64,000 nucleotides of DNA from an uncultured Verrucomicrobiae bacterium (GTDB lineage: Bacteria > Verrucomicrobiota > Verrucomicrobiia > Chthoniobacterales > UBA10450), in assembly GCA_963834385.1 (NCBI GenBank), contig CAWIBO010000005.1, forward strand, positions 576,001 through 640,000. Direction: 5' to 3'. Positions within the stretch are counted from its first letter, which is position 1; each line of letters begins with the position of its first letter. A program made the position numbers and the translations under genes. Shown here piece by piece: positions 7,990 through 63,372 of the stretch. Below the pieces are notes generated by a model. It saw nothing but the letters and a program-made list of their open reading frames with translations, searched no databases and was not told the origin of the DNA.

Positions 7990-8555
7990 GCTCCGAATAG
8001 ACAGGATTAACAGGATGAACAGGATTCGAACAAGTCTTGTGCGTTCTCCGCCCTTCCACTGTCAGCTTTTCAGTTGTCAGCGTTTCAGCATTTTCCGTCA
8101 CGTGATCAGTGATCCGCGACCAGTGATCAGCTTCTCCCCGCCATCCTCCATCCTCGATTCTCCATCCTCCATCCTCGTTCCCCCTCCCCCGGTAGGGCGA
8201 GACTCCGTCGAGCCTGGGAGCAGGCCCGGAAGTTCACCACAGAGATCGCAGAGGGCACAGAGGAAAGTGAGGGGTGTGTGAAGACAGGATGAACAGGATT
8301 AGAGGAGGCTCCGGCGGCCGAGGGCCGCTTCCCTCTGTCAGCGTTTCAGCTTCCTCTTCACGCTCCGTGCCTCCGCGCCCCAATCCTCCATCTCCTATCT
8401 CCAGGATGAACAGGATTAGAGGAAGGCTCCCGCGGCCGAGGGCCGCCCTTGTCAGCGTTTCAGCTTTCCCCCCCCGTGATCCGTGATCGGTAATCAGTGA
8501 TCAGCCTCAATACCGTCAGACCATTCACGATTCACCATTCACCATTCACGCCCCA
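7990..8555. repeat. Mosaic intergenic repeat array (9-mer ACAGGATNN, 8-mer TCAGCTTT, 7-mers TGATCAG/CCATCCT/CCATTCA, 9-mer CACAGAGNN, GTAG REP)
   Basis: Blocks read directly, e.g. GACAGGATTAACAGGATGAACAGGATT (8000-8026), GGTAGGGCGAGACTCCGTCGAGCC (8191-8214) and CCATTCACGATTCACCATTCACCATTCA (8521-8548). Confidence 0.9.
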
Positions 8556-9656
8556 ATTACACATGCGCCCCCCCTCCTTCTGTGGTAAACAAACAGCGCG
8601 GAACCCCGGGGTGTAGCTTAGCTTGGTAGAGCGCCTGGTTTGGGACCAGGAGGTCGCAGGTTCAAATCCTGTCACCCCGATTTCTTCGCCAGCCATCTCC
8701 GACTCAATCCAGCGATAGGTCTTCTCCAGGCCTTCCCGCAGGCTGATCGACGGCTCCCAGCCCATCGTCTCCCGGATCAAAGAGTTGTCGCTGTTGCGCC
8801 CGTTCACCCCCTTGGGCGCCCCGAGGTTATATCGCCGCTCCAGTTTCACTCCCGCAATCGATTCCACGATGTCGACCAGCCCGTTGATCGAGACCAGCTC
8901 GTTGCTCCCCACGTTCAACGGTCCCGCGATCCCCCGCTCCATCATCGTCAGCGTCCCCTGCAGGCAATCATCGATATACATGAAACTCCGGGTCTGCTGC
9001 CCGTCCCCCCAGATCTCGATCTCGCCGCTCCCGCTCTTCTTCGCTTCGATCACTTTCCGGCAGATCGCCGCCGGCGCTTTCTCCCGGCCTCCGTCGTACG
9101 TCCCGTGCGGCCCATAGACATTGTGGTAACGCGCCACGCAGGTGGTCAGCCCGAAATCCTCCGTGAAATGACGGCACATCCGTTCGGAAAACAGTTTCTC
9201 CCACCCGTAACCATCCTCCGGCATGGCCGGATAGGCGTCCTCTTCCCTTAACGCCGTCACGTCAGGCGAAGTCTGCTTTTCCGCCGCATACACGCACGCG
9301 CTGCTGGCAAAGAAATATTTCCCCACCTTCGCTTCCCTCGCCGCCATCAGCAGGTGGGTGTTGATCAGCACCGTCAGCATGCAAAGCGCCTTGTTGTTCT
9401 CAATAAACCCCATCCCGCCCATGTCGGCCGCCAGGTTGAAGACTTCGCGCGTGCCGGCCACGGCCTTTCGGCAGTTCCCGAGATCCTGCAAATCGAGCGA
9501 GAGGTTCTCCACGTCGTCGAACCGCTGATACCATTCCTCCAGCGGCTTGATATCCACCGCGCGCAAAGGCCCTGCCCCGCGTCGGCGCAGCTCGGCCACC
9601 AGATGGCCCCCAATGAACCCGCCCGCGCCGCAGACCACGATCTCAGCTTTTTTCAT
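8532..9656 (-). CDS. NAD-dependent epimerase, GDP-mannose 3',5'-epimerase-like
   Basis: GAGGFIG, LAADMGGMGFI, SSACVY, YGWEK, GGREKAPAAICRK and GVNGRNSDN. The family-like sequence ends near 8695; the rest of the ORF is antisense tRNA-Pro. Confidence 0.9.
   Translation of the reverse strand: MKKAEIVVCGAGGFIGGHLVAELRRRGAGPLRAVDIKPLEEWYQRFDDVENLSLDLQDLGNCRKAVAGTREVFNLAADMGGMGFIENNKALCMLTVLINTHLLMAAREAKVGKYFFASSACVYAAEKQTSPDVTALREEDAYPAMPEDGYGWEKLFSERMCRHFTEDFGLTTCVARYHNVYGPHGTYDGGREKAPAAICRKVIEAKKSGSGEIEIWGDGQQTRSFMYIDDCLQGTLTMMERGIAGPLNVGSNELVSINGLVDIVESIAGVKLERRYNLGAPKGVNGRNSDNSLIRETMGWEPSISLREGLEKTYRWIESEMAGEEIGVTGFEPATSWSQTRRSTKLSYTPGFRAVCLPQKEGGRMCNWGVNGEW
8607..8680 (+). tRNA. tRNA-Pro (TGG), CCA not encoded
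   Basis: CGGGGTG/CACCCCG acceptor stem, D-arm TAGCTTAGCTTGGTAGAGC, anticodon arm CCTGG-TTTGGGA-CCAGG and T-loop GGTTCAAATCC. Confidence 0.97.
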
Positions 9657-9718
9657 CTCCGCGCACCTGTGTAATTCGGCATTTCAGCTTTGCTCTCTTT
9701 GGGCTACGATAGCCCTCC

Positions 9719-11497
9719 TTGTCGAGCCGATCGCACTTATCTCTGCCCGCTGGCGAGGCCCCCCGCAAGTTGCTTCCGGGCGCCCTGGCCCTGGTCGCCC
9801 TCGCTTTCCTCTGGTTTATCCTCATCCGTCACCTCAGCAATGAATGGTCGGTGAACGAGCAATACGGCTACGGCTGGTTTGTCCCGTTCTTCGCCGCCTT
9901 CCTTTTCTGGCTGCGCTGGGAAGATCGCCGCCGCCCCTTCCCCTCCTGCTCTTGCTCCTGATCCTGCTCCTGCTCCTGATCCTGCTTCTCCTCGCGATCG
10001 TGCTCCTGCTCGTGCTCGTGCTCGTAATCCTGCTTCTGCTCCACCATTCACGATTCACCATTCACGATTCACGCTCCTGCTCCCCGCGGCCGCGGCCGCG
10101 CTGCTCCTGCCGGTCCGCGTTTTCGAGATCGGCAACCCCGATTGGCGCCCGCTCGGCTGGGTTCACGCCGCCATCGTCGTCGGGCTCACGCTCGCTTTCA
10201 TCCACTCGATCGGCGGCCGGTCCTGGCTTCGGCACTTCGCTTTCCCCGTTCTTTTCTTCCTCATCGCGGTGCCGTGGATCACGCCGGTGGAAGCGCCCGT
10301 GGTCCAGGGTCTCATGCGCATCGTCGCAATTGTCTCCACCGAAGTCGTCACGCTGCTCGGCATCCCCGCCCAGCTCGAGGGCAGCCTCATCCGCATCCAA
10401 AATGGCCTCGTCGGCGTCAACGAAGCCTGCAGCGGCGTGCGCTCTCTCCAGACCTCGCTCATGATCGGCCTTCTCTTTGGCGAACTGAAACGGTTCACCG
10501 TCGGTCGTCGGCTCGGACTGATCGTGGGAGCCGTCGTCATCGCCATGATCTTCAATTTCCTGCGCGCGATTATCCTGGTCTGGCTGTCCGCCACAAGAGG
10601 GGCGGAGGTGGCCAATTCCTGGCATGACGCACTCGGCTACGCCATCGTCGGCGGCGTTTTCCTTGGCACCATGGCCCTCGCCGCCGCCTTCGGACGCTCC
10701 AAAACCCCAATCGAAAATCGAGAATCGAAAATCGAAAATCCGTCACCATTCACGGCCCTGACCGCGACGCCGGCCGTCGCCGCCCTCCTCTGGCTCGTGG
10801 CCGTCGAGTTCGGCGCCGCCGCCTGGTATCGCGCCAGCGAAACCGATCTGGTCGCGCGCGAAAGCTGGACCGTGCAACAACCGACCGACGCTCCCGGTTT
10901 TCGCCCGATCGAGATCGACGATCAGGTTCGCCAAACCCTCCGTTACGACTCACGGCTGGCAGGTCGCCTGGACCGGTCCGATCCCCACCGATAACGGACA
11001 ACCGATCACCGATCACCACCGGAAACTCGCTCCGAGTTTCCAGCTCTTCTATCTTCCGCTGGGAACCCGGCACTTCCACCATCCTGCGGGCGCGGGCGCA
11101 TCGCCCGGATGTTTGTCTGCCGAACGTCGGCTGGCGCGAAGCGGCCGACCACGGCATCCGCTTTTACCAGGTGGGCGGCGGCCTCTCTCTTCCGTTCCGG
11201 CATTTCACCTTTGTCCGCGATCTGCCAGGGCGACGCGCACTCCAGGCCGAGGCTTTCTTTTGCATTTACGAAGACCGGGTCCGCCCCTCTTTGCAAACCA
11301 GCGCGGCCGACCTGACCGCCGGCGATGTGGGCGGGTGGATGCCGGCCGAACGGTTCCGCGTGGTCCGCGAAGGCCTGCGCAACCCCGGCCAGCAGGTAAT
11401 GGAATTGGTCATGCTCACGCCTGATGCCCTTTCGCCCGCCGACGCCCAGACACGCTTCGCCGAGATGCTCCCAAGCCTTGTCCAGACCAGCCGCTGA
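9719..11497 (+). CDS. Exosortase fused to a C-terminal EpsI-like domain (apparent frameshifts near 9930, 10950 and 10985-11050)
   Basis: N-terminal QYGYGWFVP; VNEACSGVRS (Cys), NFLRA (Arg) and WHDALG (His) catalytic triad; C-terminal FRWEPG...AHRPDVCLPNVGW (H-x-P-x-x-C...GW, EpsI-like). Confidence 0.88.
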
Positions 11498-11527
11498 CCA
11501 TTTTCCGCCCGCCTCCGCCGAACAGAG

Positions 11528-62962: not shown

Positions 62963-62968
62963 GGGCGC

Positions 62969-62997
62969 AGTCTGGCGTCTTCCCTTCCCGTGGGCAA
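62969..62997 (-). promoter_or_regulatory. Sigma70-like promoter of the nif3 gene (leaderless geometry)
   Basis: TTGCCC-N17-CAGACT, ending 6 nt before ATG 62962. Confidence 0.5.
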
Positions 62998-63019
62998 ATC
63001 TCGCGTGGCCGGCTTCTTC

Positions 63020-63372
63020 GGTAGGGCGACGCTCCGCGGAGCCTGGGAGCACGCGTCGTCATCCATTAGATACGGCGCCCTGCTTTGTCTGGAGCCAATC
63101 CCGACGAGGGGCGCTTCTTCCCGGAGGGACGAGCTTCCGCTCGTCCTGGACCTGCGGAAGCAGGTCCCTCCGTTTTGGAGCGGGGCATCGATTGCTCCCA
63201 GGCTCGACGGAGTCTCACCCTACCGGGGGGTACGAGGGGCGTGAGTTGTGAATGGTGAATCGTGAATAGAAGGGAGGGCGTCGCTTCCCCAAATCCTGTT
63301 CAATCCTGTAAATCCTGTCTTATCCCAGCCCTCTGCGTCCTCTGTGCTCTCTGCGTTCTCTGTGGTGAACTC
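63020..63372. repeat. Nested REPIN-like element (inverted GTAG REP pair enclosing an inverted GGAG REP pair) plus 7- and 9-mer blocks
   Basis: GGTAGGGCGACGCTCCGCGGAGCCTGGGAGC (63020) ... GCTCCCAGGCTCGACGGAGTCTCACCCTACC (63224); inner CGGAGGGACGAGCTTCCGCTCGTCC-T-GGACCTGCGGAAGCAGGTCCCTCCG. Confidence 0.9.

Follow-up and report, generated by a model that had tools for sequence, protein, structure and literature searches.

The 64,000-nt stretch of DNA that we analysed (G000:C5:576001-640000; hereafter the window) comes from an uncultured Verrucomicrobiae bacterium, and its intergenic regions hold mosaics of short tandem blocks, each a few copies of a 6- to 9-nt word, mixed with repetitive extragenic palindromic (REP) elements. 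We consider it probable that these mosaics are piles of words matching the arms of small-gene cassettes that encode four-helix-bundle (TIGR02436) or GxxExxY proteins, grown by the copying of single arms onto or beside existing blocks and then by duplication of block-plus-REP composites. Their best description is that of a repeat-armed cassette system without its genes, piled up and mixed with REP elements. The genome (G000) comprises 2.9 Mb and is 89.6% complete; none of the relatives compared is of the same genus, and four unpublished genomes (G002, G007, G014 and G151) add few rows to the relative counts and carry no main claim. Gene coordinates come from our own dicodon model and are approximate because many window genes are split by frameshifts. 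Judging by the nearest named records to its family's PrmC, which are metagenome-assembled genomes (MAGs) of Chthoniobacterales and Candidatus Udaeobacter, the host is probably a soil verrucomicrobium.

Repeat words and the arms of small-gene cassettes

The original prediction, made from the letters of the window, had described at least 12 intergenic regions as tiled with blocks of mostly 3-5 units. Tandem Repeats Finder and direct reading found blocks in all 12 that it listed, and 391 of the 438 non-hexamer blocks in the genome have three to four units. Over-representation relative to a Markov background, which that prediction required, was borne out: de novo counts were 62 per Mb for period 7, 32 for period 8 and 18 for period 9, versus 9, 9 and 1 in a Markov-5 simulation (7-fold, 3.5-fold and 18-fold). 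Eighteen unit families, defined from the earlier list, our own reading of cassette arms and the de novo period counts, gave 528 matches in the genome versus 2 in Markov-6 sequence of equal length; because these families were picked from the same genome, the de novo Markov-5 count is the unbiased test. After removal of overlaps there were 499 blocks in 197 clusters, 82 of them with at least two families. The window holds 49 blocks and is among the densest 64-kb stretches of the genome. Its words recur at tens of unlinked loci, and we agree with the original prediction that local slippage is an insufficient cause. Hexamer, octamer and nonamer families are as common as heptamers. Two details were corrected: GCAGGAANN, listed as a nonamer, is an octamer (CAGGAA recurs at a spacing of 8 in 102 cases and 9 in 5), and the proposed rule that heptamers start Y-C-R is weak and little above background, being followed by 39 of 50 cassette-arm heptamers versus 68% of all heptamer classes.

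The genome has nine TIGR02436 and three GxxExxY loci and, as the original prediction had stated, the window contains no gene of either family and none for a RAYT transposase. The three candidate families named there were the right ones, since TIGR02436 and GxxExxY genes carry the words as arms and REPs lie at fixed spacing from blocks. Pfam assigned tested representatives to 23S_rRNA_IVP and PDDEXK_3, and the closest solved structure to one cassette protein is 2GSC. Inverted arms flank seven of the nine TIGR02436 genes by script and eight by eye, nearly every one with a different word, and all three GxxExxY genes by eye. Eleven of the 12 window words are cassette arms, eight in the same genome (outside the window) and three in relatives. 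The own-genome words are CCGATCA, CCAATAA, CCATTCA/CCATCCT, TCAGCTTT, CTCCTG, CTCTGYG and TTCCTGCT; the CCGATCA cassette lies at C5:558261, 18 kb ahead of the window, the CTCCTG cassette has only a left arm and a frameshifted gene, CTCTGYG arms border two GxxExxY genes, and TTCCTGCT arms a broken GxxExxY gene. In relatives, TCGACTT and TCGAAAA are arms of four-helix-bundle genes (G029, G021 and G023), and coordinates place ACAGGAT on the flank of a GxxExxY gene of G021 (C6:47042-47380). No cassette was found for CCAGCTT in the same genome or in relatives.

The association extends to relatives. Our sample comprised 118 of 200 TIGR02436 matches from 41 genomes, with best-scoring matches and family members favoured. 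A strict test for inverted arms was passed by 69 of the 114 loci with full flanks (swapped-flank control mean 10, maximum 18), and in a lenient test 99 of 115 loci exceeded the 95th percentile of the control. In a quick tree of 111 four-helix-bundle proteins, which has many open forks, the arm word follows the protein clade across genera; nine hexamer-armed proteins, for example, form a clade with support of 99. The tree shows that gene and word stay together; recognition of the word by the protein does not follow from it.

The mosaics also retain the polarity of the cassettes. The block order was left arm first and right arm last in 72 of 101 multi-block clusters and reversed in three; where the end blocks came from different families, the counts were 55 and 2. 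Two families were re-polarised according to their cassettes for this count. Most blocks nevertheless stand alone: a cognate inverted partner lies within 250 nt of 90 of the 499 blocks genome-wide and of 4 of the 49 window blocks, and within 600 nt of 8 window blocks, leaving 41 unpaired. Between the 16 same-family left-right pairs that lie 250-1500 nt apart we found only known cassette genes, ordinary genes or no clear open reading frame (ORF). The original prediction of several distinct families held, and these co-locate beyond chance, with at least two, three, four and five families in 70, 37, 26 and 13 spacers, versus means of 47.8, 8.9, 1.4 and 0.2 under a length-weighted null. Likewise, the clustering of families by region scored 224 versus a permutation mean of 127 and maximum of 165 (1000 permutations).

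Blocks inside genes and the loop of PrmC

The original prediction placed the blocks in intergenic DNA. This held for the 12 spacer regions; blocks also occur inside an exosortase gene and a TPR-like (tetratricopeptide repeat-like) gene of the window (at 9943, 10711, 10988, 12561 and 13467; Table 1). In a strict genome scan, eight rows (seven distinct clusters) fell within open coding frames, among them those of leuS, prmC and a gene metH-like by sequence.

The clearest case is prmC. From 143 matches in 151 family genomes we took 92 loci, mostly the best-scoring, and dropped five in which the motif could not be parsed. A periodic loop directly precedes the DxGTGSG motif in 64 of the remaining 87 orthologues, versus 2 of 1000 control windows. 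These loops comprise 32 unit classes, up to seven of them in one genus, and units within a genus differ at two or more of seven positions in 118 of 150 pairs. Loop length is nearly constant, at 17-21 residues in 61 of the 64 periodic loops versus 16-20 in 21 of the 23 non-periodic ones. On a tree built without the loop, separate genera share identical loop peptides, SEIRNPKSEIL among them. Two genera (g4 and g41) retain a repeat-free loop, and among more distant Verrucomicrobia and other bacteria the loop was scored periodic in 4 of 55. The change at prmC is replacement rather than plain insertion. Six of 30 strand-free heptamer classes at prmC equal a cassette-arm word (letter-shuffle mean 1.4, P=0.0005), and the bias towards words with ATC or ATT likely reflects a conserved isoleucine at the junction. 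Most of the loops are a bare block. In L419 (G164), L418 (G166), L425 (G023), L438 (G018) and L383 (G135), small GC-rich, hairpin-like pieces are seemingly inserted, in frame, within the heptamer block.

Blocks occupy three loops of the exosortase gene (~9.7-11.5 kb); among ten homologues, five have different heptamers at the same loops and five have none. In the TPR-like gene, an insertion of about 45 residues, made of three block-plus-linker copies, is missing from three of five orthologues, and BLAST found other words at a second loop in three of five. The TPR-like assignment itself is a reading of helical sequence, with no NCBIfam match. A CAACAA unit is present in 5 of 5 CCAATAA blocks of this gene versus 2 of 24 outside genes, with the frames unsure; we did not count the apparent avoidance of stop codons, since three of the five blocks are tandem copies and the frames are unsure. 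Lineage-specific block replacement is thus seen between species and genera in the exosortase, prmC and TPR-like loops, and it is likely that words repeatedly overwrite tolerant loops of housekeeping proteins. Elsewhere in the genome, a long CTCRTG hexamer block (G000:C2:315731-315839) reads as a (His-Glu)n loop of a membrane protein, possibly a metal transporter that uses repeat DNA as a histidine-rich loop.

Proposed mechanism and alternatives

We propose that a nick or break would be made, most likely by the GxxExxY nuclease, a PD-(D/E)XK-family enzyme, or at a REP by a RAYT, and would be repaired by copying about four units from a cassette arm. Short in-register homology would set the junctions, so that new blocks could land on old ones. 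Long-distance movement of block-plus-REP units is likely due to RAYTs and local copying of composites to ordinary recombination; selection would retain only events in spacers and in tolerant, frame-preserving loops. For the four-helix-bundle protein we predict binding to its own word. The proposal is weakest on which enzyme does the writing. We found no PF00078 reverse transcriptase match in the 89.6%-complete genome. This speaks against a retroelement route, even though PF05635 resembles Avd of diversity-generating retroelements (PMC10053308); the same result separates the mosaics from such retroelements. More tentatively, the cassettes may constitute a widespread, transposase-free word-writing system in which each clade recognises its own 6-9-nt word and about four units are written over existing DNA; such a system would continually rewrite surface loops of PrmC and other essential enzymes and, if true, would be the source of bacterial heptamer repeats.

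Several observations weigh against the cassettes as the source of the words. Gene and arms travelling jointly would alone produce the tree pattern, and related genomes are non-independent samples. For ACAGGAT (35 blocks), the most frequent nonamer of the window, the genome at its present completeness contains no cassette. In G005, G011 and G020, where the query used detected nothing close to its cassette protein, the octamer TCAGCTTT matches 18-22 times, and a cassette gene was missing from all 20 octamer loci read in relatives. G039, in which neither gene family turned up, has five octamer and four nonamer matches. Only CCAATAA blocks gather near their cognate gene (8 versus 3 expected), and the hexamer alone shows mixed end positions in clusters. 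Of 13 abutting heptamer junctions, 10 are in phase, which lends little to in-register landing because most are overlapping calls on one array. The word found at prmC often has few other copies in its genome (GATGGCA in G100 is confined to prmC), and the presence of AAATCCG elsewhere in a genome is not significantly tied to the state of prmC (3/7 versus 17/80, p=0.34). The TCAGCTTT counts weigh against a strict form of the mobilisation in trans suggested in the original prediction, in which every family would be moved by an enzyme of its own. On the other side, four of the five genomes without a match to either gene family are also without a match to three word patterns, and all four genomes with at least 26 hexamer matches have a hexamer-clade gene, versus a maximum of 13 matches in the 30 genomes without that gene. 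The evidence for and against dependence in trans could be reconciled if cassettes reside only transiently, if assemblies are incomplete or if alleles are exchanged.

These same observations bear on the alternative that survives best, namely that a quirk of host replication or repair makes 7-9-nt tandem blocks and the small genes merely sit between them, with no role in making or moving them. Such a quirk would accommodate word families that are abundant without a detected cognate gene, prmC words that are often private to their locus, the negative search of the genome for a reverse transcriptase, and the wide occurrence of heptamer excess (Mrazek 2007, as summarised in PMC4679880). We think it unlikely, given that the same words stand at tens of unlinked loci, that they follow protein clades across genera, that prmC words equal the arm vocabulary above chance, and that left/right order matches cassette polarity.

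REP elements raise a second alternative, that the mosaics are simply bacterial interspersed mosaic elements (BIMEs), in which RAYT transposases move REP units and the blocks are passive linker DNA. A search with seven motifs gave 217 GTAG/GGAG-tagged REPs in the genome, 15 of them in the window, arranged in ordered composites. They interleave with blocks, as the original prediction had noted: 151 of the 217 lie within 250 nt of a block (odds ratio 16-18 for sharing a spacer), and the spacing is fixed, with CCATTCA 14-25 nt from the REP in 14 of 14 cases. The genome also has four RAYT-like loci, none in the window, and in G020 a composite of a REP pair and the octamer is locally duplicated. BIMEs alone are nonetheless an improbable explanation: 66 of the 197 clusters have a REP within 250 nt and 131 have none of the seven motifs there, none of the 22 copies of one REP family is near a block, and the bare blocks of most prmC loops lack this companion. 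Moreover, GGAGGGAC-type and GGAGCACGG-type REPs flank two RAYT-like loci, whereas for the commonest REP, GTAGGGCGAGAC, we found only a related flank (C3:71551) and no RAYT flanked by exactly that REP. Two RAYT domains, with their REP flanks, stand inside long open frames of 712 and 707 aa (G000:C2:733641-733901, L089, and C3:125051-125452, L087), whose flanks read as leuS and alaS.

In the cassette-arm reading, REPs and blocks are copied jointly as composites. Units resembling that at 63.0-63.4 kb recur on three contigs, and 120 of 491 pairs of similar mosaics lie less than 50 kb apart versus 5.6% expected (about 4-fold), 80% of them in direct orientation. The composites at 35.3, 37.2 and 39.3 kb and, inverted, at 14.0 and 8.0 kb have linkers in common. 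Much of the recurrence within the window is thus copying of multi-block composites, including linkers, rather than independent block insertion. The shared composite points one way at 8.0-15.3 kb and the other way at 35.3-63.4 kb, and GC skew weakens ~32-80 kb from the window start; an old inversion is a possible explanation for the opposite orientations.

Location relative to genes suggests a third alternative, that the blocks are a selected regulatory RNA code of protein-binding or RNase III sites after stops and before starts. Left-type blocks stand just after stops in 66 cases versus 11, and right-type blocks just before starts in 23 versus 5, as counted before two families were re-polarised. 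Similarly, TAACTGA repeats are upstream of start codons in Beggiatoaceae according to the available text of PMC4679880, and the heptamer-bearing stems of intervening sequences (IVSs) are RNase III substrates in that of PMC4990558. Folding argues otherwise. Among ten window mosaics, only the sites at 11.5 and 11.7 kb fold better than shuffles, the other eight giving z scores of -1.6 to +1.7, on which basis we rejected long-range hairpins as the design of those eight. Furthermore, the same composite is found between divergent, convergent and co-directional gene pairs. Among 18 relatives compared at icd (a further locus, the 19th, could not be parsed), 11 are free of blocks in the flanks of the gene and the rest carry different words there. 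An RNA code thus seems slightly less probable still than BIMEs alone. In G021, mosaics of its own vocabulary occupy both sides of icd, with an octamer array of about 34 units there (L031).

Lastly, artefacts of error-prone long-read assembly, to which the many frameshift-split window genes might point, are already largely refuted, and we give them almost no weight, as dozens of independent genomes show these words and architectures and contigs from one read set (run X1, share 0.06), which represents a relative at ~2x depth, span part of a block array (12569-12719). One such contig corrected a window frameshift, and at that depth the X1 reads contained no joint deleting a block.

Known systems and features of the window

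We regard the mosaics as a variant of elements of the STRR (short tandemly repeated repetitive), BIME and IVS types; what is new here is the quantification and the link between cassette design and the prmC blocks. STRR-type heptamers have been described as TAACTGA in Beggiatoaceae (PMC4679880) and GGGAATC in Xanthomonas (PMC4692102). To judge from the text available for those papers, the window resembles cyanobacterial STRR and dispersed heptamers in its 7-nt tandem blocks of about four units, mixed with other heptamers, mostly intergenic, sometimes in inverted pairs and sometimes in ORFs; its CCRATAA family includes a rotation of TAACTGA, and GGGAATC resembles the AATC-type words of prmC. The accounts in PMC4679880 and PMC4692102, in the parts available, concern one word each and name no partner gene, whereas we find at least 18 words of period 6-9, a match to cassette arms and a left/right order. 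The defining feature of STRRs, heptamers only, is absent here. Elhai et al. (2008) reportedly described small dispersed repeats of cyanobacteria as small hairpins nested in STRR heptamer arrays, giving mosaics, and may have anticipated this layout.

The ordered composites of GTAG/GGAG REPs with flanking DNA, copied as units, are like BIMEs and clusters of REPINs (paired REP sequences) with RAYTs, as the available portions of PMC3116915 and PMC3733652 present them; those portions also record GTAG REPs in Verrucomicrobia (Opitutus terrae), some within genes. The mosaics differ in that their linkers are tandem-repeat words of another element class and in that two thirds of the clusters lack a REP. 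The 23S rRNA IVS of Coxiella with S23p is a stem-loop that contains a PF05635 four-helix-bundle ORF preceded by tandem heptamers, and RNase III cuts its stem (PMC4990558). A PF05635 ORF between inverted arms is equally the design of the cassettes elsewhere in our genome, not of the window mosaics; unlike the IVS, all nine TIGR02436 loci are flanked by protein-coding genes, the window has no rRNA, and it holds gene-less arms only. Miniature inverted-repeat transposable elements differ in having terminal inverted repeats, which are absent around most units here. Repeat DNA read in frame in working genes is shared with Rickettsia palindromic elements (PMC3733652) and with Borg tandem repeats; unlike in those repeats, the unit lengths here are not divisible by three, and many different words have replaced the prmC loop without a change in its length.

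An excess of heptamer repeats in bacteria has long been on record, with neither mechanism nor partner gene assigned; here the words map to two large orphan gene families. At prmC, one loop of a housekeeping enzyme has taken 32 repeat units across one family at near-fixed length, an unusual route of protein sequence change. We found no paper linking the TIGR02436 or GxxExxY families to dispersed repeat words or to loop overwriting; most subscription papers were outside the scope of this search, and an earlier description is possible.

Table 1. Repeat features of the window (positions in nt from its first letter; z, folding score versus shuffles)
Position	Strand	Feature	z
7999..8548	.	Mosaic: ACAGGAT nonamer, TCAGCTTT octamer, GTGATCA and CCATCCT heptamers, REP at 8192, CACAGAG nonamer, two further nonamer-linker-octamer units, GTGATCA, CCATTCA	
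9943..10071	+	CTCCTG hexamer block and CCATTCA block, exosortase loop 1; nearby frame broken in assembly	
10711..10738	+	TCGAAAA x4, in-frame reading IENRESKIEN, exosortase loop 2	
10988..11017	+	CCGATAA/CCGATCA block, third exosortase loop	
11527..11773	.	Two hairpins without gene, inverted ACAGGAT nonamer arms (empty cassette form)	-4.3 to -6.0
12561..12687	+	CCAATAA block plus linker, three in-frame copies, ~45 additional residues in TPR-like protein	
13467..13608	+	CCAATAA, CCATCTC and CCRATAA blocks, second variable loop of TPR-like gene	
13994..14330	.	Mosaic: REP, ACAGGAT, three TCAGCTTT blocks, CCAGCTT/CCATCTT; inverted near-copy of 35.4-kb composite (86%, ~160 nt)	
15098..15290	.	Mosaic: GTGATCR x2, CTCCTG, CCATTCA, REP at 15263	
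21604..21729	.	GGAG-type REP pair and TCGACTT block	
22472..22790	.	GGAG-type REP; GTGATCA, CCAGCTT-type and TCAGCTTT blocks	
33327..33520	.	GTGATCG block, degenerate blocks, 26-nt palindrome	
34104..34439	.	Mosaic: GAGGATG, GTGATC, TCAGCT, CCATCTT/CCAGCTT blocks, second palindrome copy	
35345..35760	.	Mosaic between AMP nucleosidase and icd: GTGAATG, CRGATCA, AAAAGCTG, ATCCTGT, REP, CCGATCA, CAAGAG, CCGATAA	
37177..37568	.	Mosaic after icd: GCAGGAAA octamer, CTGATCA, ATCCTGT, REP, GAGGATG, CTGATCA, TTCCTGCT extending into end of esterase gene	
39346..39595	.	Mosaic before pgi; 87% identity over ~230 nt to 35338-35574	
63021..63366	.	Four REPs, then GTGAAT, ATCCTGT and CTCTGYG blocks: dispersed REP-plus-block composite	

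Some further features of the window stand beside the mosaics. The copies of the 26-nt palindrome, at 33431 and 34249, flank an RNA-binding-protein gene on both sides, and the genome has no other copy. At 14346-15070 and 21735-22470 are two similar pairs of small membrane-protein genes with no NCBIfam match, each adjoining large genes with beta-strand repeats. Several very large autotransporter-repeat proteins are encoded at 15554-33273, near the exosortase, in frames heavily shifted in the assembly; two of them have a C-terminal VPEP-type sorting signal. Finally, a minus-strand epimerase frame (8532-9656) crosses the antisense of tRNA-Pro (8607-8680) and terminates within a CCATTCA block; this overrun probably reflects a lost stop or an assembly error.

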